Shown one piece after another: positions 700 through 22,456 of a stretch of 64,000 nt of DNA. Position numbers and translations under genes: made by a program. Position 1 is the stretch's first letter. Every line of letters begins with the position of its first letter. This DNA is from a virus. The stretch is from the IMG/VR virus record IMGVR_UViG_3300020048_000052, positions 1 to 64,000 of that record. The stretch is one strand, 5' to 3'. The notes below the pieces were generated by a model. The model saw only the letters and a program-made list of their open reading frames with translations, had not been told where the DNA came from and ran no database searches.

Positions 700-1218
700 C
701 TATAACGGCTTTAAATGTTCAAGGTTTATTTCCAAAGACCTTTCGACAACTCCGAACATTTCTACATAAACTCTAGCCTTATATTTGTTTTTGATAATAG
801 ATTTGCATGTACCAACAAAATTTGCAAAAGGTCCACCAATAATCATAACTCTCTTATTTATTAAAGAACTATAATCTACAACGCTTTGCTTATCTTCAAG
901 ATTTTTTATATGCTCAACTTCATAATCTTTTATTGCCACAGGTCTAGAACCTTCTTTTAAAAACGAGATAACTGGAGTAGACCTTAAAATTTCTTTCCAT
1001 ATTAGAGAATCTTCTTCAAATTCGAATAATACATAATTTTCAAACATAGGATAGGTGATGATTTCTTTTTTTCCATCTTTTACTACTACTTTAGAAAGCA
1101 TCGGATACCACATCTTAACATCTGCAAATTCTTCGTGTTTATGAAACGAATTAATCAATTGATTAAGATACCCTTTATAAAAATAGCCAACATACCATTT
1201 TTTAGACACAATCATCAC
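700..1218 (-). CDS. nusG: NusG-family transcription antitermination factor (NGN + KOW)
   Basis: KKWYV N-terminus, PMFENYVLFEF (NGN), STPVISFL, and KOW motif RVMIIGGPFANFVG...VYVEMFG. Confidence 0.85.
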   Translation of the reverse strand: MMIVSKKWYVGYFYKGYLNQLINSFHKHEEFADVKMWYPMLSKVVVKDGKKEIITYPMFENYVLFEFEEDSLIWKEILRSTPVISFLKEGSRPVAIKDYEVEHIKNLEDKQSVVDYSSLINKRVMIIGGPFANFVGTCKSIIKNKYKARVYVEMFGVVERSLEINLEHLKPL

Positions 1219-11233: not shown

Positions 11234-11935
11234 TTAAGCATATGAAAGGTCATCAAAGACAACCGGGATTTGGACTTTCATTTCGTCCAACAAAGGTTTA
11301 GCTACTTGCACCATCTGTGGATGAGGTTTTCCAGTAGTACCTAATGCGCGAAGCCTAAAGAAATGCCTCCACTCTCTTAAGTCCATTGTAACAACGATAT
11401 CAGACTTGACAGAATGTAATAGCACCGAACGTGCCAATTGTGCAGGACAACCAGAATTTACAAGCGATATGTAGTGCCTTTCAGAGTCTTCGATAGCACC
11501 TAACCATTCAGAAATCCAGTAATTAACAAGTTCTGCAGTTACAAGAATCTGTTCATTATTAACTGGATGCTTATAGGTCTTACCAACTTCTGCTTCCATA
11601 ATTTCACGAATATCAATTACGGTAATTTCTGAGCCGCTTTTTTCTTTACCATAATTGCAATACCTTGTAGATTCTTGTGCATATGAAGCAATACGGTGCC
11701 GAACAATTTCATGTGTAACTCCTCTATCTACAGTAAAAGTTACAGTTACAAAATGATGTTCAATCATTGCCTCGTGGCCGCTTTTAATTAAAGAAGCAAC
11801 GAACTTTTTTGCCGACTCATCAGTTATTTTATCCTCAGATTTATAGCAAGTTCTACCTGCTTTTTCGATTTTTCTAAGGATAGCTAAACCATCAATGCCT
11901 TCTTCTATTGCGAAGCCAGGTTTAATAATCTGCAT
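11234..11935 (-). CDS. thyX: Flavin-dependent thymidylate synthase (canonical)
   Basis: AGRTCYKS, GHEAMIEH, THEIVRHRIASYAQESTRY, ARSVL, REWRHF, HPQM. Confidence 0.95.
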   Translation of the reverse strand: MQIIKPGFAIEEGIDGLAILRKIEKAGRTCYKSEDKITDESAKKFVASLIKSGHEAMIEHHFVTVTFTVDRGVTHEIVRHRIASYAQESTRYCNYGKEKSGSEITVIDIREIMEAEVGKTYKHPVNNEQILVTAELVNYWISEWLGAIEDSERHYISLVNSGCPAQLARSVLLHSVKSDIVVTMDLREWRHFFRLRALGTTGKPHPQMVQVAKPLLDEMKVQIPVVFDDLSYA

Positions 11936-15000: not shown

Positions 15001-15729
15001 TCCTTTTGCATTAGTCATTAGCAATTCATGATACGCTTCCTTTGTTGGAGAAAGCAGGACTAAATGGCCATAATCGTCATCCAAATAACCACTATCTATA
15101 GCCTCATCATCTTTTTTCCTTTTTTGCCTTTCAAGTGAAGCTTCAATTTTCAATTCGATATTGTCATCAGTATAAATCTCATTACCAAGAATTGGTTTGA
15201 TTGAATAATCTGGACGGTCTGAATCTTTAAAAGCCTTACAAGCTTTATAAAATTTCAAAGCACTTGACATGTTTCCATGCTCTGTTACTGTTGCACCTGG
15301 GAGACCTAATTCAGCAACTCTATTAATATATTCATCAATAGACATTACAGAATCTTTTGTTGAATAATCTGTATGATTATGTACCGGAATAAATGGTATT
15401 GTGTCGATAGTAGGCATAGGGACTTTTCTAGCACTAATCATACCAGAATATTTTTTGTCCATAATAGGTATAATCTTTTCGACTGCTTTTTTAGCTTTTT
15501 CGACCTGTTTGTCAATATCTGATGTCTTCTTAACCTTTTTAACAACTTTCTTAACTGGAGGTTCTGGCTGTTTTACAACCTTTTTAATCTTTTTTACTGA
15601 CAATTTATTCACCTCTTTAATGCAGGCCCTGTCGCATTCCATGCAGTCAAGATATACGACAGGGCCATTTATGATTGGGCAAAACCTACTCATTAACTTT
15701 AAATACAAGCTTATGCATACTATGCCCAT
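12004..15729 (-). CDS. dnaE: DNA polymerase III alpha subunit (family C); true start probably about 15693 (ATG) or 15603 (TTG)
   Basis: PHP motifs HNHTDYS/TEHG/DAHY, GPGRGSAAG, PPDIDLDFD, HASG, KFDILG, YSFNKSH and C-terminal OB fold. Confidence 0.95.
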   Translation of the reverse strand: MGIVCISLYLKLMSRFCPIINGPVVYLDCMECDRACIKEVNKLSVKKIKKVVKQPEPPVKKVVKKVKKTSDIDKQVEKAKKAVEKIIPIMDKKYSGMISARKVPMPTIDTIPFIPVHNHTDYSTKDSVMSIDEYINRVAELGLPGATVTEHGNMSSALKFYKACKAFKDSDRPDYSIKPILGNEIYTDDNIELKIEASLERQKRKKDDEAIDSGYLDDDYGHLVLLSPTKEAYHELLMTNAKGFRDGFYKRPRLTHEYILNEASKHQIATSACLASKFNYYIRCGQDKAAKQLLSDYRDAFGDRFYVELHFNELEIQRYCTNKILEFAKELGIPWIVGLDAHYARKEHVQYHDYFKDMYYGGSIAEPSKFRYSTRELYLKDSNEIIHSAMKWDYGIDRKDIISGLHKTMEIYDRTDFEMETGVLKFPRFSMEPNFDANAELKRKCIRGYNKRKRQGLLPAPGFTEQDYKDRFNKEFPVIVGKGYADYFLIVSEFTDYCVETDLFKGPGRGSAAGALISWLLEITKVDPIRYGLFFERFLNEERADPPDIDLDFDSERRYEIEELLIKKNGPEKVAHIMSFGTWGCKSVIGELSKVFGLPWGIIDKFKKLCNDDQTIQQNLDRIMGVSCIKRMRKGEEVEIRETPAPDIKEFVENNTEFFEACKFYEGKVRNYSMHASGVVVTPGKMEELAPINRASGQIVTGLQEGGDIREISDIGLLKFDILGLNNCTILNRALQSVKRRKGINIDIDAIDLEDDKLLERFRQGHTAGIFQFESSGITKFIKDIQPQRFEDLIIVNAAYRPGTLRAGGVDMIIENRHSDDIDYMHPEIEAVLGPTYNVLVYQEQQMALMHRVGGFTMVEADKSRKTIKYINKASTASPENLKKFYDMIEHFKEGAHQKTGLAYEKLQKLVDAMASAADYSFNKSHSCSYAIIAMQNMFLKHYYPADYAAAFLSRTKNEEKKGKAGHKTGENKIEKYVKMAISEMKLEIGTPDISISGIDWVPKDDKTIIPSLTFIKGVGEAAVPEIVAHQPYTSLESFFGADMQWRLVNKRVVEALIQTGSFDSLYQHRKTLLEAYTRWNNGGKKNFSKILAKVEEEMGQEDLTFDEKMALEKDLFGFYFSANPLDKYGDVIQKKGIKEVSELAKGKKWKRGTLYGIVTKAYPYKISKGTMCFVDIQGKDETKASITVWPEMYTPYKDLLKEGNIVAIKVKPGKSKNDEPCFYIDEDDERKKVILMDDLI

Positions 15730-16219
15730 TTACAAAAATCATTGCAACATCTATATTTAATTTGTCTTGTAAAGCTCTTGTTATTTTATGCACTAAGTAC
15801 ATATCAGAAAATAATTTCTGTTCAACTTCAGAGCTTCTTAGGTGTACATAGCAGTAAATTTTTGAATCCCGAACGAGATAGTGAATTAAACTGATACAAC
15901 AGTCATCCGACCATAAAACTCTTCTGGAATGCAAATCTTCATCAAATAATGAAAACTTTGATAAAAGTTCATTTTCGATTTTACTGTATTCTTCCTTTTC
16001 CAGTTCCTCGATGCTTTTCAAGTCTATCTTGTGACTATTATAATATTCAACCATATTTTTCTTAATATCAGCAATATCAATTTGACTGTTATAAGAAATA
16101 TTAAAACTATGATTGAGGACTTCAATAGTACCTTGTCCGTCAACTAAGACAGGCTTTCCTTTTTCAACTACAAACAATTGAAGATTTTCAATCACTTGCC
16201 TTAAACCTAATCCATGCAT
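15686..16219 (-). CDS. Minimal thymidylate-synthase (ThyA)-fold protein, candidate pyrimidine-modifying enzyme
   Basis: SRR...CCISLIHYLVRD...VHLRSSE...LFSD aligns with the TS core RR...PC...Q...RSxD...N, with Asp at the specificity Asn position. Confidence 0.6.
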   Translation of the reverse strand: MHGLGLRQVIENLQLFVVEKGKPVLVDGQGTIEVLNHSFNISYNSQIDIADIKKNMVEYYNSHKIDLKSIEELEKEEYSKIENELLSKFSLFDEDLHSRRVLWSDDCCISLIHYLVRDSKIYCYVHLRSSEVEQKLFSDMYLVHKITRALQDKLNIDVAMIFVNGHSMHKLVFKVNE

Positions 16220-16284: not shown

Positions 16285-17340
16285 TTAGTCTTCCATAAAC
16301 CTTGCTTTTTCAATATCGGGAAGGCTATCAAAAGTTTCGAAATTAGGCCATTCATCGGGCCTTGTAATATGAATACCGAGCTGTTCCTCAAGGTCCTTAT
16401 AGTTTGTGCATGTTTCATTAAACTCCGCATAGTCATTGCTGTCGGGACATGAATTCCTTCCACACTCCTTAAACAAACAGCCAAACATTTCAGACAGTGT
16501 ATAAGATTTGTGGTACTGGCATTTGCCTGCCCAATCACAACCAGGTCTTAAAAATGAACCAAGCAACGGATATGCTTCCGACACAGCCCTAGCTGTTTGC
16601 CATGCAATAGCAACTGTATCTTCCATTTCGCAGAATTTCATTCTGGTACTGCACATATTCCTCAATGCCATAAAGTTAATCGAAAACGAAAAACCATAAA
16701 CTACATAAAGAGGTAGTACACAGCGAGCTGCCTGCCAAGAACCTTTACCAACGTCAACAATATCTGCATATGTCTGTTTAACATCGCACATAACACGCTT
16801 GATATTCCAAAAAATATTGCATTTGTCAATTGCTTTTTGCTGCTCTGCTGTAGGTGTTTTGATGATATTACTGCGCCATTCATCGAAAATTTGAATTTCA
16901 TCTTCTGTTGGCCAAAGTGCAGTTGGAATCCTTATTGAAGCATCTTTCCAATTGTTATCCCTCATACCTCTTGCAGAAAATACAACACCAAGTCTTGCTC
17001 TTGCAATCTGATCGAATGCCGCACGTGATGGCCCTTCTACTGCAAAAGCAAATTGAGGTACTTCCAATGCCAATGGTAACGCTTGGCCTCTTAAAGCTGC
17101 CTTAACAACTTCAAATCTGTTTTCAGGCGATGTCATTTCCCATTTATCTACCTCTTTACCCCAGCATGTAGTAGCCAGAATATACATTGGTTTATAAGGG
17201 TTTGCAATGACAGATTCGATAAGTTTTACCGAAATTCCTTCAACACCTTTTAAAAATTTTGTTTCAAGTTTTGGGTCTTGGTCTGGAAGTGTCCCCATAA
17301 CTCTCCTAAGTTCATTGATACGCGTAGTTTCGTTACTCAT
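16285..17340 (-). CDS. Divergent second ThyX-family flavoprotein
   Basis: LALEVPQFAFAVEGPSRAAFDQIARARLG (RHR changed to RAR), WQAARCVLP, Cys-rich C-terminus. Confidence 0.75.
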   Translation of the reverse strand: MSNETTRINELRRVMGTLPDQDPKLETKFLKGVEGISVKLIESVIANPYKPMYILATTCWGKEVDKWEMTSPENRFEVVKAALRGQALPLALEVPQFAFAVEGPSRAAFDQIARARLGVVFSARGMRDNNWKDASIRIPTALWPTEDEIQIFDEWRSNIIKTPTAEQQKAIDKCNIFWNIKRVMCDVKQTYADIVDVGKGSWQAARCVLPLYVVYGFSFSINFMALRNMCSTRMKFCEMEDTVAIAWQTARAVSEAYPLLGSFLRPGCDWAGKCQYHKSYTLSEMFGCLFKECGRNSCPDSNDYAEFNETCTNYKDLEEQLGIHITRPDEWPNFETFDSLPDIEKARFMED

Positions 17341-17369
17341 AATATCCTCCTTTATTGGTTTATAATATT

Positions 17370-17398
17370 ATTATATCACAAAAGAATCATTTATTAAC
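17370..17398 (-). promoter_or_regulatory. Conserved phage promoter GTTAAT-N14-TGATATAAT
   Basis: Exact consensus match. Confidence 0.8.
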
Positions 17399-17420: not shown

Positions 17421-18554
17421 TTATATAAATACCTTTTTATTACGATTTTCATAGTATGCTTGGTTTATTGGCTGATATCTACTAAAGCAATTATCACATT
17501 TTCCGGAACAGAATGTTTTGTTGAAATTTCTTTTCCATATTTTTATAATGCTTTCAGAATTAACATTGCCAAGGCCTGTAAATGAAGTTTGTCTTTCCAT
17601 TAAGCAATCGCTGAACTTTTGCAATTCCCAAAATGTTCTTTCTCCATATTCATCTGTATCATCAGCAATCATCTCGCACGGAAATACATTTCCATCAGAA
17701 CCTATAGCTAAATGAATTTTATTTATGATGCATGGATAATTACCGAATGTCACTTTTCTAACATCTTCATCTTGTGAATATGCCTGTATAAGGCTGTCAT
17801 AAAGAAACTGCAAATTGTTTTCGGGTATTCTTTTGTGATAGTTCTTACTTATCATATCGTTTAGTTGTTCTAAAATTATTTCAATTTCATCTCTACCAAT
17901 ACAGAGGTTTCCATCACCGTGCATAGGATAAATCATAAGTCTATAGATATTATTTTCTGCAGAAAACTTAATAATGTCGCGAATGTCCATGCAATTACTT
18001 TTCTGTATTGTGAAATTTATTCCAACCTCTTTTTGATGCTCTTGAGCCTTTCTAACGTTAGGCAAAATCGTTCCATATAAATTATCGAGGCCCCTAATAA
18101 AAGTGTATCTAGCAGGGTCTAGAGAATCAATAGAAAAGCGTATCCACCTTAAGCTTGCCAATTTCGAAAAATCGAAATTCTTTTTAAAATTACCTGTGCA
18201 AATAATTCCAAGGTCAAAATTTCTTTTCATATCCAGAATTTTATCAAAATCTGGATGGAGAATTGGGTCACCGCCAGTTAAGCAGATTGACTCTACTTCA
18301 TTTTCATTACAGTCATCCCATATTTCTTTTAAAATAGAAATGTCCAAATTATTGCGATTTTTAGTTTTCCAATGACCGCACATATTACACCGGTTGACGC
18401 AGTAGTCAGTAACTAAAATATGCAACGATATCGGGCCTTTCAAAGCTTCTTTTTCAATAAGCTTTACATACGGCAATATTTTCTTAACTGTCTTTTCTCT
18501 AACTACATCCATGTTAAAGCACCTCCTGATTATATTTATAAGGGCAACCATCAT
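17421..18554 (-). CDS. Radical SAM enzyme with SPASM/twitch domain (likely start about 18512)
   Basis: CVNRCNMC, LTGGDP, RFSIDS, C...GNVFPCE...LGNV...CDNC. Confidence 0.9.
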   Translation of the reverse strand: MMVALINIIRRCFNMDVVREKTVKKILPYVKLIEKEALKGPISLHILVTDYCVNRCNMCGHWKTKNRNNLDISILKEIWDDCNENEVESICLTGGDPILHPDFDKILDMKRNFDLGIICTGNFKKNFDFSKLASLRWIRFSIDSLDPARYTFIRGLDNLYGTILPNVRKAQEHQKEVGINFTIQKSNCMDIRDIIKFSAENNIYRLMIYPMHGDGNLCIGRDEIEIILEQLNDMISKNYHKRIPENNLQFLYDSLIQAYSQDEDVRKVTFGNYPCIINKIHLAIGSDGNVFPCEMIADDTDEYGERTFWELQKFSDCLMERQTSFTGLGNVNSESIIKIWKRNFNKTFCSGKCDNCFSRYQPINQAYYENRNKKVFI

Positions 18555-19032
18555 CAGAAATTTCCAAATGCATAACTGGAACGTTATTTCTTATCATAGC
18601 TTCCTTTAACTTGCATTCTGCAATTTGTTCTTTGCCTGCCTTACATTTCATACAGACAAGCAAAGCATATTCACAAATTTCATAAAAATCTTCTGTAACA
18701 ACAACCATATTTGATTCTATTTTTTCCATTTCTTTAAATTCCCTAATGGCTTCAGTCTTTTGTTTTACTATTATTTCAAGTTTTTTCATTTCATTTATTA
18801 CATCATGCTTATATTTGTCATCAAGATTTTGAAAGTACCAATCTATAACTTTTAGGCAGAATGACCTTGACATTTTCATAAACTTAATTACAGACTTTGG
18901 TCTTTTAAGTTCTTCAAACTTGATAATCAAATTATTCATGAAGTCAACGAGAGTCCCTAAAATAATAGTATTATATCTGTCTTCCTTATTTAGATATCGT
19001 TTCATCTTTATCAACTCCTGAAAATAAATCAT
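18514..19032 (-). CDS. DUF5651-like protein
   Basis: MKRYLNKEDR N-terminus and C-x2-C...C...VP...CPY C-terminus. Confidence 0.6.
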   Translation of the reverse strand: MIYFQELIKMKRYLNKEDRYNTIILGTLVDFMNNLIIKFEELKRPKSVIKFMKMSRSFCLKVIDWYFQNLDDKYKHDVINEMKKLEIIVKQKTEAIREFKEMEKIESNMVVVTEDFYEICEYALLVCMKCKAGKEQIAECKLKEAMIRNNVPVMHLEISDDGCPYKYNQEVL

Positions 19033-20023
19033 GTGCCTGTTGCATTTTCTCTTTAATATTTATTCCAAACGGGCAATTAGAAGAACATTGGCTGTCACAG
19101 TCTTTACAGTCATTTACATTATATTTATATTTTTCATAACTGTCTTTCATGTCAAGTCCAAACTTTTCTTGATATATTGCGCATTTTAATATACCGGGCT
19201 GCGACATTGCCCAACCATATTTCTGGCATGGCCTGCATTCGTTGCAAAACCTACAAAAGTCAGAACCAAAAAAATCAACTATCTGATTTTCTAAAATCAT
19301 AATTTCTTTTTCAGATAGTTTTTCAGCAAAGCAATATGCATTTGCTATTTGTTGTAATTGTTCTATAGAACGATAAGCCGGAATGATTAAGTCACCATTG
19401 TATGCAGAAAAATTCATAACTTTTTGCAATGTCACAGTGCGTTTAAATTCATTATCAGAAGGCCCTCCAAGCAATATTCCGCTTGCGAAGTTTTTCATAG
19501 TGACTACACTAATTCCTTTTTCTTTTGCACATTGAATAATAGATTCAAACTCCCTATGCATTAAAGAAAATGGTACCATTATTATATCTACAAATCCACT
19601 TTCTATTGCAGTCATTGCAGCAGTAACTGAATGCCCAGAAACACCTACACTTTTTATAAACCCTTTGTCCTTAATATTTTTCATCTCATGTAAAACGTTC
19701 ATAGATTTTTCCAAGGTTTCGTCATCATCTATAAACGAATGGCCAAAATAAAAGTCTACATAGTCAGTATTGAGTTTACCTAAACTATTTACCAAAGACA
19801 AATGAAGTTCTTTGACTGTAGCTGCCTTTGTCTTAGTAGACAATAAATAGGACTCCCTCTGATAGTCTCTAAGCGCATGCCCAAAAAATTCTTCACTAGC
19901 ACCATATGCTGGAGAAGTATCAAAAATCCTAATATCTAGCATATCATATGCATATCTGATTATTCTTTCAGGATGGTCAACAGGATTTACAAAGTAACCA
20001 CCCATTCCCAATTTTGCTTTCAT
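18986..20023 (-). CDS. Aldo/keto reductase with C-terminal 4Fe-4S domain
   Basis: FDTSPAYGASE, LSTK, SLGKLNTDYVD, VGVSGH, CRFCNECRPC...CKDC...CPFGI. Confidence 0.88.
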   Translation of the reverse strand: MKAKLGMGGYFVNPVDHPERIIRYAYDMLDIRIFDTSPAYGASEEFFGHALRDYQRESYLLSTKTKAATVKELHLSLVNSLGKLNTDYVDFYFGHSFIDDDETLEKSMNVLHEMKNIKDKGFIKSVGVSGHSVTAAMTAIESGFVDIIMVPFSLMHREFESIIQCAKEKGISVVTMKNFASGILLGGPSDNEFKRTVTLQKVMNFSAYNGDLIIPAYRSIEQLQQIANAYCFAEKLSEKEIMILENQIVDFFGSDFCRFCNECRPCQKYGWAMSQPGILKCAIYQEKFGLDMKDSYEKYKYNVNDCKDCDSQCSSNCPFGINIKEKMQQAHDLFSGVDKDETISK

Positions 20024-20036
20024 ATTAAATCTCTCC

Positions 20037-20483
20037 TTATAATAAGCGTTCAGCTGTTAACAGAATTTGTTCCATACACTCATCTATACAATATTTAGAA
20101 GTGTTTATATTTAATACTTTTAAAGAAGTATTTTCTAAATACTGCCTATATTGTTGCTTTACATAATCAATCTGTTGTAAATCAATATCTTTTTCATCAT
20201 GTTCTATAAACCTTTTCTTAATATCTTCAGTATCGGCAAAAACATGAACAAACATAACTGGAATAGGAGATTTTGTTAAAAAACTTTCCAAATTTCTAAA
20301 ACTTTCCAAACTTGGAGTTGAATTTTTATTATGAAGCCTCCCATAAACATACTGACATGGAGTAAACCTGTCCACGCAAATATGTTGGTTTGTTCTTTTT
20401 AAGATATTTTTCATAAGTGTACTTTTGCCAGTCTTATCGCAGCCGACGAAAAGCAAAATTGCCATTTTAAAAACCCCCTTCAC
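20037..20483 (-). CDS. Short dNMP-kinase-like P-loop protein (second nucleotide kinase)
   Basis: FVGCDKTGKST, VDRF, INTS. Confidence 0.8.
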   Translation of the reverse strand: MKGVFKMAILLFVGCDKTGKSTLMKNILKRTNQHICVDRFTPCQYVYGRLHNKNSTPSLESFRNLESFLTKSPIPVMFVHVFADTEDIKKRFIEHDEKDIDLQQIDYVKQQYRQYLENTSLKVLNINTSKYCIDECMEQILLTAERLL

Positions 20484-20542: not shown

Positions 20543-21499
20543 TTATATGTTCCACTTTTCGACTATATCTAGAAGGTCTATAAACGGTATAATCAAATTA
20601 CTTAATTCAGATGGAATACGATTAGTATTGTCATAACAATCTTTAAGAAAAACCACATAACCTTCTTTTGCAACATCGATCGCAATCTCAATACAATCTT
20701 CTACCATAAAAAGCATTTTAGGAAATTCTTTTATGATTTTAAGATGTTTCTCTTTATCCCAAATAATAGCGTCGAAATATATATTGTTTTCCTTAAGGAA
20801 CTTTAATGTGTCCGGATAAATAGTGTAATATTCCTTATAAGGGCGTGCTGTAAGAATTACCACTTTATATCCTTTTTGATGAAGTAAATTAGTAAATTCT
20901 GAAGCATGTTTGCAAGCAGGCATAGAAGATTTCCATCCTGACTGGCGATAGTCAGACTTAAGTCTTTCATAATAAATCGTACCAAGCCCTGCCTTTGCTT
21001 CTTCTAATGAATTAAATTTCTGTCCAACTCTCGCCCGAACAAACTCCAAGAACCAAAATGGATATTCTCCTAAGACGCCATCAATGTCAACTGCTGCAAT
21101 CTTTTCGTCTTTGTCAATAAGTTTTAAATCATGTTCTTGTGTCCATCTCTGGTCAACAACCCAGCTTTTTCTAAGATATTCCTCATAATAATCTTCAAAG
21201 GTCATACCCCAGATTTGTGCAAGTCCTACTGAGAATTTATTGACATCGATTATTTCTTCATATAAATTCGAAGGAATAAATTCTGTTTCAATATTGCGAT
21301 GCTCTTTCCAATTCGGAATTTCATCCAGCACTTCCATTGATTCTTTTACTATAGAAAGCAATTGGTTTTTAGACCAAAATACTTTTTCTTCCATAGTCAT
21401 GTCTTCCATTTCTTTACCTATCTTTGCCCTGTAAAACTTCCTGTTAAATTCTAACTGAACGTCCCACAAATGCTTAAGCTTGTCTTTATCGTTTTGCAT
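20543..21499 (-). CDS. Fusion of all-alpha NTP pyrophosphatase (dimeric dUTPase/MazG-like) and HAD 5'-nucleotidase
   Basis: N-terminal KESMEVLDEIPNWK...EEIID; C-terminal VDIDGV, ILTARP, VEDC. Confidence 0.82.
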   Translation of the reverse strand: MQNDKDKLKHLWDVQLEFNRKFYRAKIGKEMEDMTMEEKVFWSKNQLLSIVKESMEVLDEIPNWKEHRNIETEFIPSNLYEEIIDVNKFSVGLAQIWGMTFEDYYEEYLRKSWVVDQRWTQEHDLKLIDKDEKIAAVDIDGVLGEYPFWFLEFVRARVGQKFNSLEEAKAGLGTIYYERLKSDYRQSGWKSSMPACKHASEFTNLLHQKGYKVVILTARPYKEYYTIYPDTLKFLKENNIYFDAIIWDKEKHLKIIKEFPKMLFMVEDCIEIAIDVAKEGYVVFLKDCYDNTNRIPSELSNLIIPFIDLLDIVEKWNI

Positions 21500-22403
21500 T
21501 AATCAAACCCCCATCTCTACAAATTTTGACAATATCATCTGTTTTTATATCATGGTCCCAACTTGCATATCTTCCAAGAAACAAAATATCATTTATTTCT
21601 TGAACCTTACCGCTCTGAATCTGACCAACAGGAATAACGTGATGTTCGCGAGAATACATTGACCAAGTTTGAATTATAGACTTATAACTCTTATTTGTCG
21701 TATATTCTATTGAAGCCTTTCCATTTCCTGTTTTAGATATCCTATGATATCCGTGAGCTGAGTCTGGGAAATATATATAATCAAACTCCCCAAAGTCAAT
21801 TTGGTCTTCATTCATTACTACAAAAACCTTTTGAACATACTTAAGTTCTTGTTCTGGTTGCAAGTTTGAAATTTTAAAGAATACCGGTGCAGGAATTGTC
21901 GATACCAAACTATCATATCTTAAAATTTCAGAACCATCAGATTCTACTTTTAAGATATGATTTGTAGTATCGATTAAACTAACTTTACCGTTTATAGGTT
22001 TTTCTATACTATTTACTAAAATACTAACAACTTTGTCCCAATCAATATCGAAATATTCAATAAAACTCTTACCGTCTGACATTATTGAACTTGGTACAAT
22101 AGCTGCCGTATGTAAACATCTTGACTTAATATAATATTTTTTTCTTAAGTCTTCAGATATTGAATTTACAAGCTTTCCTTCTACTTTATAACCTATTTTA
22201 GCGATTTTGATAGGGCATTCTTTTATGCCTAAATCATTAAGAAATTCTTTAGAATATTGATTTACTTCTAATATTCTTGGGCCAACATTTTTAGAAACCA
22301 TTTGACCGCCAATATCTTGAGAAATAATCTTATATTCTTTATTATAATAAGCCGCAATTAAACCGGCAATCCCTCCACCAATAATATACTTTGACAACCT
22401 CAA
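21486..22403 (-). CDS. FAD-dependent oxidoreductase/mutase resembling UDP-galactopyranose mutase
   Basis: IIGGGIAG, GGQ, GPRIL, LVSTIP, YIYFPD, YHRIS, FLGRYASW...TDD. Confidence 0.7.
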   Translation of the reverse strand: MRLSKYIIGGGIAGLIAAYYNKEYKIISQDIGGQMVSKNVGPRILEVNQYSKEFLNDLGIKECPIKIAKIGYKVEGKLVNSISEDLRKKYYIKSRCLHTAAIVPSSIMSDGKSFIEYFDIDWDKVVSILVNSIEKPINGKVSLIDTTNHILKVESDGSEILRYDSLVSTIPAPVFFKISNLQPEQELKYVQKVFVVMNEDQIDFGEFDYIYFPDSAHGYHRISKTGNGKASIEYTTNKSYKSIIQTWSMYSREHHVIPVGQIQSGKVQEINDILFLGRYASWDHDIKTDDIVKICRDGGLINAKR

Positions 22404-22427: not shown

Positions 22428-22456
22428 ATTATATCACATTTAATACACTTATTAAC
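22428..22456 (-). promoter_or_regulatory. Conserved phage promoter heading the modification cluster
   Basis: GTTAAT-N14-TGATATAAT exact. Confidence 0.8.

Follow-up and report, generated by a model that had tools for sequence, protein, structure and literature searches.

Described relatives and analogues of the c2 protein

The sequence motif of ThyX, a textbook enzyme that is also a drug target, is taken to be diagnostic. The window studied here, a 64,000-nucleotide stretch of viral DNA (positions 1 to 64,000 of IMG/VR record IMGVR_UViG_3300020048_000052), encodes a rewired ThyX-fold protein, here named c2 after its protein cluster (16285..17340, minus strand, an open reading frame (ORF) of 351 aa), in addition to a canonical ThyX. 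Canonical ThyX (flavin-dependent thymidylate synthase, FDTS; EC 2.1.1.148; PF02511; TIGR02170) has the same fold as c2, which keeps the equivalents of Thermotoga maritima (Tm) R78, R80, R90, R147 and R174. At 15-18% identity, however, c2 differs by the replacements His79 to Ala, Ser88 to Gly, Tyr91 to Asp and His53 to Leu, by new invariant FDQ, GxRDN and WQ motifs, by an extra Cys-rich tail of about 90 residues and by a score that falls short of the TIGR02170 cut-off.

T4 gp42, a dCMP hydroxymethylase, and phage dUMP hydroxymethylases such as that of phiW-14 are paralogues within the ThyA family. They follow the same logic as the system proposed below: a paralogue of thymidylate synthase (TS), present in addition to a true TS or in its place, prepares a C5-modified dNMP ahead of replication, assisted by a pyrophosphatase for dNTPs and a kinase for dNMPs. 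They are unrelated to c2 in fold and in mechanism, which relies on a Cys nucleophile and uses no flavin, and the analogy is functional only. Within the ThyX fold, PolB of polyoxin biosynthesis is a neofunctionalised paralogue found alongside a housekeeping ThyX (PMC5954106). The structure of this UMP/dUMP C5-methylase (PDB 4P5A/4P5B) matches c2 with a Z score of 14.9, but PolB still methylates, with dUMP and UMP as substrates, and is bacterial whereas the c2 family is viral; no specific sequence kinship was seen between them.

Two groups of phages with modified DNA bases offer further comparisons. The Thy1 family is represented by two genes, gp9 and gp130, in Bacillus phage SP-15, whose uracil is hypermodified; one of them was proposed to encode a hydroxymethyl-dUMP synthase (Kropinski et al. 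2018, PMC5977210). As in the window phage, one of the pair is canonical-like and the other very divergent, and the divergent one is the hypothesised synthase. Kinship of the c2 family with gp130 was ruled out (hhalign probability 0.4). In DNA of the Pbunavirus phages F8 and 14-1, sugar-derived modified thymidines with masses of 362 and 390 Da account for about a quarter of T and are confined to the TG context; the preprint that describes them assigns no genes to the modification (PMC12191111, preprint). The PB1-like Pbunavirus LBL3 encodes a non-canonical ThyX, gp57 (RTR, no GH-motif His), in a replication block together with gp63, a homologue of the flavoprotein c6 that accompanies c2 (see below). 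Pbunavirus ThyX keeps Q-x-S/T-x-R and scores 120 bits with a canonical-type profile versus 46 bits with the c2-family profile, which places it closer to canonical-type ThyX than to the c2 family. No description of the c2 clade turned up in literature searches on divergent ThyX families.

The c2 protein has a ThyX fold

The c2 translation contains FDQIARARLGVVFSARGMRDNNW and ARARLGVVFSARGMRD, the strings quoted in an earlier note on this DNA. It matches Pfam Thy1 over residues 46-258 with 51.8 bits, above the gathering score of 24.8, and reaches 26.9 bits with the TIGR02170 ThyX equivalog, under its cut-off of 87.9; a comparison with PHROGs gave zero matches. The AlphaFold2 (AF2) model built on an alignment of 85 sequences has a pLDDT of 93.4 and a pTM of 0.91. 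Foldseek matches it to ThyX and PolB structures only (E ~1e-9, 15-18% identity). An exhaustive VIA-align search separates five ThyX-family representatives, with Z scores of 12.8-15.4, from all other structures (Z at most 4); the ThyX of T. maritima (TM0449) and of Mycobacterium tuberculosis (Mtb; 2AF6) give Z 15.3-15.4 over 208-215 aligned residues. By its Pfam score and its modelled fold, c2 is a member of the ThyX/FDTS superfamily (Pfam Thy1 fold). The model also shows, with good confidence, a helical insert of some 40 aa (residues 145-185, window 16786-16906, minus strand), which is restricted to the closest relatives, the group of 57-80% identity, and is missing from the rest of the family.

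One half of the active site is kept and the other rebuilt

The residue register was obtained by aligning the family profile to M. tuberculosis ThyX, and hhalign against canonical-motif viral ThyX agrees with it (probability 99.9); the conservation figures refer to 85 homologue sequences. Residues R114, A115, R116, G125, R127, D128, R206 and R233 of c2 correspond, respectively, to R95, H96, R97, S105, R107, Y108, R172 and R199 of the Mtb enzyme and to R78, H79, R80, S88, R90, Y91, R147 and R174 of the Tm enzyme. The ThyX motif RHRxxSxxxxSxR(Y) is not matched, its His, Ser and Tyr being A115, G125 and D128 throughout the family. The altered motif reported in the earlier note, RAR...G-x-RDN in place of RHR...S-x-RY, is indeed read in the translation, where the remodelled segment R114-A-R116...S122...G125-x-R127-D128 lies at 16957..17001 (minus strand; profile alignment and hhalign). 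Also gone is the GH-motif His, His53 in the Tm and His69 in the Mtb enzyme, which we take to be the folate-side His; its hhalign column holds an invariant L88, followed by P89.

The pattern of conservation is that of a constrained site. R114, R116, G125, R127, D128 and N129 are invariant, as are all the nucleotide-pocket arginines (R114, R116, R127, R206 and R233), and c2 retains the residues that are universal in ThyX: E93, R106, R114, R116, R206 and R233. The residues that stand at the exchanged positions (L88-P89, D110-Q111, G125, D128-N129, W202-Q203 and E238) are invariant in their turn, so the active site is rebuilt, not decayed. RAR in place of RHR is by itself a weak mark of c2, because the middle His is T/A/S/Q/N in many viral ThyX proteins.

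The retained arginines bear on the ligand. We take Tm Arg147 and Arg174 to be dUMP-contacting residues, the latter, like its counterpart R182 of the PBCV enzyme, presumably pairing with the uracil carbonyls. In Tm ThyX, Arg78, Arg80, Ser88 and Arg90 are direct hydrogen-bond partners of dUMP, and Arg182 of PBCV-1, the R174 equivalent, is strictly conserved and bonds an inhibitor that occupies the uracil pocket, at its carbonyl and hydroxyl groups (PMC3498832). Because the equivalents of Tm R78, R80, R90, R147 and R174 are invariant in the c2 family, a dUMP-like nucleotide is its likeliest ligand, which speaks against the non-dUMP substrate proposed in the earlier note.

Inteins mark the same pocket. 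They typically occupy critical sites of important proteins, and several homologues reach 480-717 aa because of them, as read from their sequences (P0121, P0126, P0122, P0152, P0160 and P0169). The five independent insertion points, F109|D110, S122|123, G125|126, after N129 and F236|C237, all fall inside conserved motifs. Some of these inteins hold inserts of homing-endonuclease size, and the near-invariant C237 is the intein +1 residue in two homologues.

A large virus-only clade

At least 209 relatives of c2 are found in a protein database clustered at 90%, with 43-80% identity and lengths of 317-360 aa, all of them metagenomic. In an exhaustive profile search the number of clusters rises from 79 at E<1e-30 through 526 at E<1e-10 to 2239 at E<1e-3. 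The family was met in just 6 contigs among 185,579 species genomes, every one from metagenome-assembled genomes (MAGs). No member was detected in any cultured phage: tblastn against 50,697 phage records gave only distant ThyX genes of 22-23% identity (Pbunavirus, Gordonia phage Ranch). In the tree, c2 sits in a supported clade (SH-aLRT 97) marked by FDQ plus GxRDN, and adjoining clades carry THQ...Q-GGRDND, QCxGD or the canonical Q-S-RY.

The canonical ThyX of the window (11234..11935, minus strand), outside the c2 gene module, scores 119.5 bits with TIGR02170 (cut-off 87.9) and has the motif RHRIASYAQESTRY. The window genome, 100% complete according to CheckV, encodes this enzyme and a dCMP deaminase besides c2. 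A canonical ThyX also coexists with c2 in three related loci (L001, L002 and L099), whose c2 proteins are 38-75% identical to that of the window, and it accompanies c2 in 2 of 10 whole viral records. Between the window and L001, c2 is 75% and canonical ThyX 64% identical; for L002 the figures are 63 versus 38%. The earlier note called c2 a second, divergent ThyX. Against reading this as a recently derived copy of the canonical gene, the tree and the better conservation of c2 than of canonical ThyX between related phages indicate that c2 is a vertically conserved member of a large, old, virus-only clade.

The Cys-rich tail

The C-terminal part of c2 contains, as the earlier note had counted, six cysteines, C268, C274, C288, C293, C298 and C311, within 44 residues (16408..16539, minus strand). 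Together with C237 they form a probable metal site, in the region of lowest pLDDT of the model (62-89). Among the 85 homologues, C268, C274, C288 and C293 never vary, C311 and, upstream of the six, C237 are conserved in at least 90%, and C298 is variable. In the VIA-wide search, made with the model of the whole protein, the tail has no fold match of its own.

C268, C274 and C293 align with the PKC...GxC...SCG cysteines of viral ThyX proteins that have a fully canonical RHR...SQxSQRY motif, and these proteins also have a Cys two residues past the R174 equivalent. An eight-member subclade of the c2 family has lost the tail cysteines and kept the remainder of the pocket. Because its core is common to canonical-motif viral ThyX and is lost in one subclade, the tail is better seen as an elaborated ancestral metal site than as the distinguishing feature of c2. 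It was accordingly ruled out as the key novelty; its core, C-x5-C...C, is not peculiar to c2. Most likely the cluster binds a metal (Zn or Fe-S) for structure or for electron relay and is not a catalytic novelty. Four conserved cysteines (RLC, PKC, GxC and SCG) are present in the canonical-motif viral ThyX proteins P0254, P0257, P0259 and P0262 and missing from all solved ThyX structures, which suggests a so far undescribed metal site in otherwise ordinary viral ThyX enzymes.

Gene neighbourhood of c2

The context of c2 was compared by clustering the ORFs of 12 viral and 80 metagenome loci, and the counts given here refer to the 40 unique loci of at least 8 kb. Two partners are nearly constant, each in 39 loci: the 305-aa flavoprotein c6 or its 250-aa homologue c11 (c6 versus c11 hhalign probability 97.9), and c0, a fusion of a MazG-like nucleotide pyrophosphatase with an HAD-type phosphatase. 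A Tmk-like kinase (c5) is found in 26 loci, a short ThyA-fold protein (c9 or c12) in 25 and a DnaE-type polymerase, which c2 tightly adjoins in many cases, in 24. Less frequent are dCMP deaminase (12/40), an NAD-dependent sugar epimerase/reductase (11/40), radical SAM proteins (3/40), canonical ThyX (2/40) and aldo-keto reductase (2/40).

c6 (21486..22403, minus strand; 305 aa, AF2 pLDDT 94) is a mini-flavoprotein with the fold of UDP-galactopyranose mutase (UGM) and amine oxidases. Its best PDB folds are UDP-galactopyranose mutases (E ~1e-13), followed by amino-acid and putrescine oxidases, PPO and renalase, and its clusters in the Atlas are virus-only. Compared with its cellular relatives c6 is short, with about 60% of their size, and its homologue in Pbunavirus LBL3 is the gp63 mentioned above. 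c0 (20543..21499, minus strand) usually adjoins c2. Its residues 3-92 match the NTP pyrophosphohydrolase phrog_173 and residues 132-292 the polynucleotide kinase (PNK) phrog_415, a stretch that our reading assigns to the phosphatase part of such kinases. c5 (20037..20483, minus strand) is a short P-loop kinase matching thymidylate kinase phrog_761 (E 1.2e-8).

Directly downstream of c2 lies c9 (15686..16219, minus strand), a mini ThyA-fold protein of 177 aa with weak matches to phrog_160 and TIGR03283 and further matches to a short TS (9iqu) and to T4 dCMP hydroxymethylase. It is homologous to the ThyA-like c12 (hhalign probability 97.3), whose best PDB match is the CMP hydroxymethylase MilA. 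An Asp of c12 aligns with the MilA Asp at what we take to be the position of the uracil-selecting Asn of thymidylate synthase. The short ThyA-fold proteins, of 150-220 aa and exemplified by c9 and by L002:9333-9989, keep the catalytic Cys and have no counterpart of the C-terminal part that follows the conserved His in full-length TS; c12 stops at that point, and c9 looks shortened N-terminally too. They may be minimal dCMP C5-modifying enzymes.

Between the module genes of the window, at 17421..20023 (minus strand), Pfam identifies radical SAM/SPASM, DUF5651 and Fe-S aldo-keto reductase genes. This lineage-specific insert is found only in near relatives of the phage (L001, L039), and the inserted aldo-keto reductase carries a C-terminal 4Fe-4S-like Cys motif. 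The radical SAM/SPASM and aldo-keto reductase genes were considered as c2 partners in a "hypermodification cluster" and ruled out by their occurrence in 3/40 and 2/40 loci.

The 80-nt spacer upstream of c2 houses a promoter-like site, TTAATA-16 nt-TGnTATAAT at 17397-17370, and the ribosome-binding site AAAGGAGG at 17353-17346 (together 17346..17397, minus strand). A second promoter of the same form (22428..22455, minus strand) precedes the c6 gene, which starts at 22403. Five copies in the window align as GTTAAtA...TGATATAAT...TTATAAA, and c2 does have a promoter copy of its own, as the earlier note held. The 13-mer by itself is weakly enriched (10 matches versus 5.5 expected), so the promoter assignment rests on the longer alignment. 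This phage promoter repeat has at least five copies in the window, at 17370-17397, 22428-22455, ~9057, ~31308 and ~33226, always on the minus strand. Elsewhere in the window, a gene for a phage NusG/KOW protein (700-1218, minus strand) adjoins RuvC and SbcCD genes.

Proposed activity and alternatives

It is plausible that c2 does something other than make ordinary dTMP, because its signature residues are systematically replaced and a canonical ThyX coexists with it. The reading that we favour, tentatively, is that c2 modifies dUMP at C5 to a product other than plain dTMP. We infer its substrate, its product and the fate of that product as follows. The conserved arginine set would hold a dUMP-like nucleotide, while the folate/NADPH and proton-relay side of the site (Tm His53, His79, Ser88 and Tyr91) has been swapped for L88-P89, D110-Q111, G125 and D128-N129. 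c2, presumably a flavoenzyme that binds flavin, would act in a three-gene module with c6 and c0, often joined by the Tmk-like kinase. A carbon unit would be moved to C5 of dUMP, giving a hydroxymethyl or larger group; the modified nucleotide would next receive phosphates and enter phage DNA, and the separate canonical ThyX would supply dTMP. In favour of this reading count the rebuilt pocket with its inteins, the coexistence with a less well conserved canonical ThyX, the nearly constant module and the virus-only range, and SP-15 and the Pbunaviruses offer precedents. The neofunctionalised flavin-dependent pyrimidine C5 modifier of the earlier note thus survives in part: the constrained ThyX fold, the replaced signature and the coexisting canonical ThyX agree with it, the non-dUMP substrate is abandoned for the reason given above, and the hydroxylation that it listed among the possible reactions finds no specific support.

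The most serious competitor, to which we give less credit, makes c2 an unorthodox thymidylate synthase that yields ordinary dTMP, with c6 as its reductase, perhaps a Cys-bound metal as electron relay, and the canonical ThyX as a later, partly redundant acquisition. The retained dUMP-contacting arginines suit such an enzyme, as does the wide variability of the middle His of RHR among viral ThyX. c2 is the sole Thy1 match in 8 of the 10 whole viral records, none of which has a full ThyA, and it is the only ThyX/ThyA-type candidate in most related contigs; the missing canonical TS is weak evidence in the latter, because most of these contigs are fragments. The usual companions of a TS, dCMP deaminase (12/40 loci), a Tmk-like kinase and a MazG/dUTPase-like domain, are often nearby and give the locus the look of an ordinary dTMP pathway. 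The favoured reading has further points against it. The Pfam scan of window ORFs from 1 to 36 kb detected no recognised glycosyltransferase, base kinase or pyrophosphorylase of thymidine hypermodification. Pbunavirus ThyX and SP-15 gp130 serve c2 as analogies only. Finally, of Tm His79 and Arg165, both of which we take to be FAD contacts, the first is missing in c2 and the equivalent of the second also seems absent, according to the alignments.

A dTMP-forming c2 is harder to reconcile with other observations. The canonical ThyX coexists with c2 in at least three divergent lineages, and there c2 is under the tighter constraint; the lower identity of the canonical enzyme between the window and L002 (38 versus 63%) would, on the other hand, fit independent late acquisitions. 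Four ThyX-motif positions and, besides them, the folate-side His are exchanged for another invariant set and not merely relaxed, and the TIGR02170 score is far under its cut-off. Cellular genomes are without the family, bar the 6 MAG contigs, which is unexpected for a general-purpose TS.

Within the favoured reading, modification of dUMP to something other than dTMP, a more specific and rather improbable version can be drawn. UGM chemistry proceeds through an iminium between flavin N5 and sugar C1, and in ThyX chemistry the carbon of a flavin-N5 iminium is passed to C5 of dUMP and then reduced. By combining the two, c2 and its UGM-fold partner could alkylate dUMP reductively at C5; the carbon unit would come from a sugar instead of the folate methylene, and the product would be a 5-(polyhydroxyalkyl)-dUMP. 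The 362-Da nucleoside of Pbunavirus F8 fits dU with a 1-deoxypentitol-1-yl group (228 - 1 + 135, by our arithmetic), and the C5 chain of the dihydroxypentyl-uracil of SP-15 resembles the proposed 5-(polyhydroxyalkyl) group.

A cytosine nucleotide could be the substrate instead, c2 converting dCMP to 5-methyl- or 5-hydroxymethyl-dCMP as a ThyX-type counterpart of T4 gp42 beside a true TS; we hold this version of the non-dUMP substrate of the earlier note to be unlikely. The new invariant D110, Q111, D128, N129 and E238 could accept the N4 amino group, the coexistence with canonical ThyX mirrors the T4 pair of td and gp42, and the MazG-like domain could be a dCTPase. The choice between the two pyrimidines is swayed by the Tm R174/PBCV R182 equivalent, presumably the partner of the uracil carbonyls, which is invariant, and by the loci already holding a ThyA-fold protein, c12 or c9, with the cytosine-type Asp, a better dCMP candidate than c2; because of these two features a cytosine substrate is the less likely one. 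The associated kinase, moreover, is Tmk-like. Equally unlikely is that c2 is no nucleotide C5-transferase at all and serves as a nucleotide-binding regulatory or scaffold subunit of a replication or dNTP complex, or as an enzyme acting on a cofactor: the tight adjacency to DnaE-type polymerase in many loci and the loss of several textbook catalytic residues would allow it, but the pocket is invariant, rebuilt and targeted by inteins, the universal ThyX residues E93, R106, R114, R116, R206 and R233 are kept, and the partner genes encode enzymes.

Significance for ThyX biology and phage DNA modification

The c2 family represents a virus-only branch of ThyX, made up of hundreds of clusters at 50% identity, that has kept the nucleotide-holding half of the active site, rebuilt the other half and become locked to a second small flavoprotein and to a pyrophosphatase/phosphatase fusion. 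The window is a good test case whichever product c2 makes, since the same complete genome carries a canonical and a rewired ThyX. If the product is ordinary dTMP, residues held to be essential in ThyX would be dispensable, pointing to a two-component form of the enzyme. If c2 leads to a non-thymine base, it would be a missing pre-replicative enzyme of phage DNA hypermodification, with a bearing on restriction evasion, on sequencing artefacts and on strains used in phage therapy. C5-alkylation with a sugar carbon, if true, would constitute a hitherto unknown class of DNA hypermodification before replication and a reaction type new to flavin-iminium catalysis.

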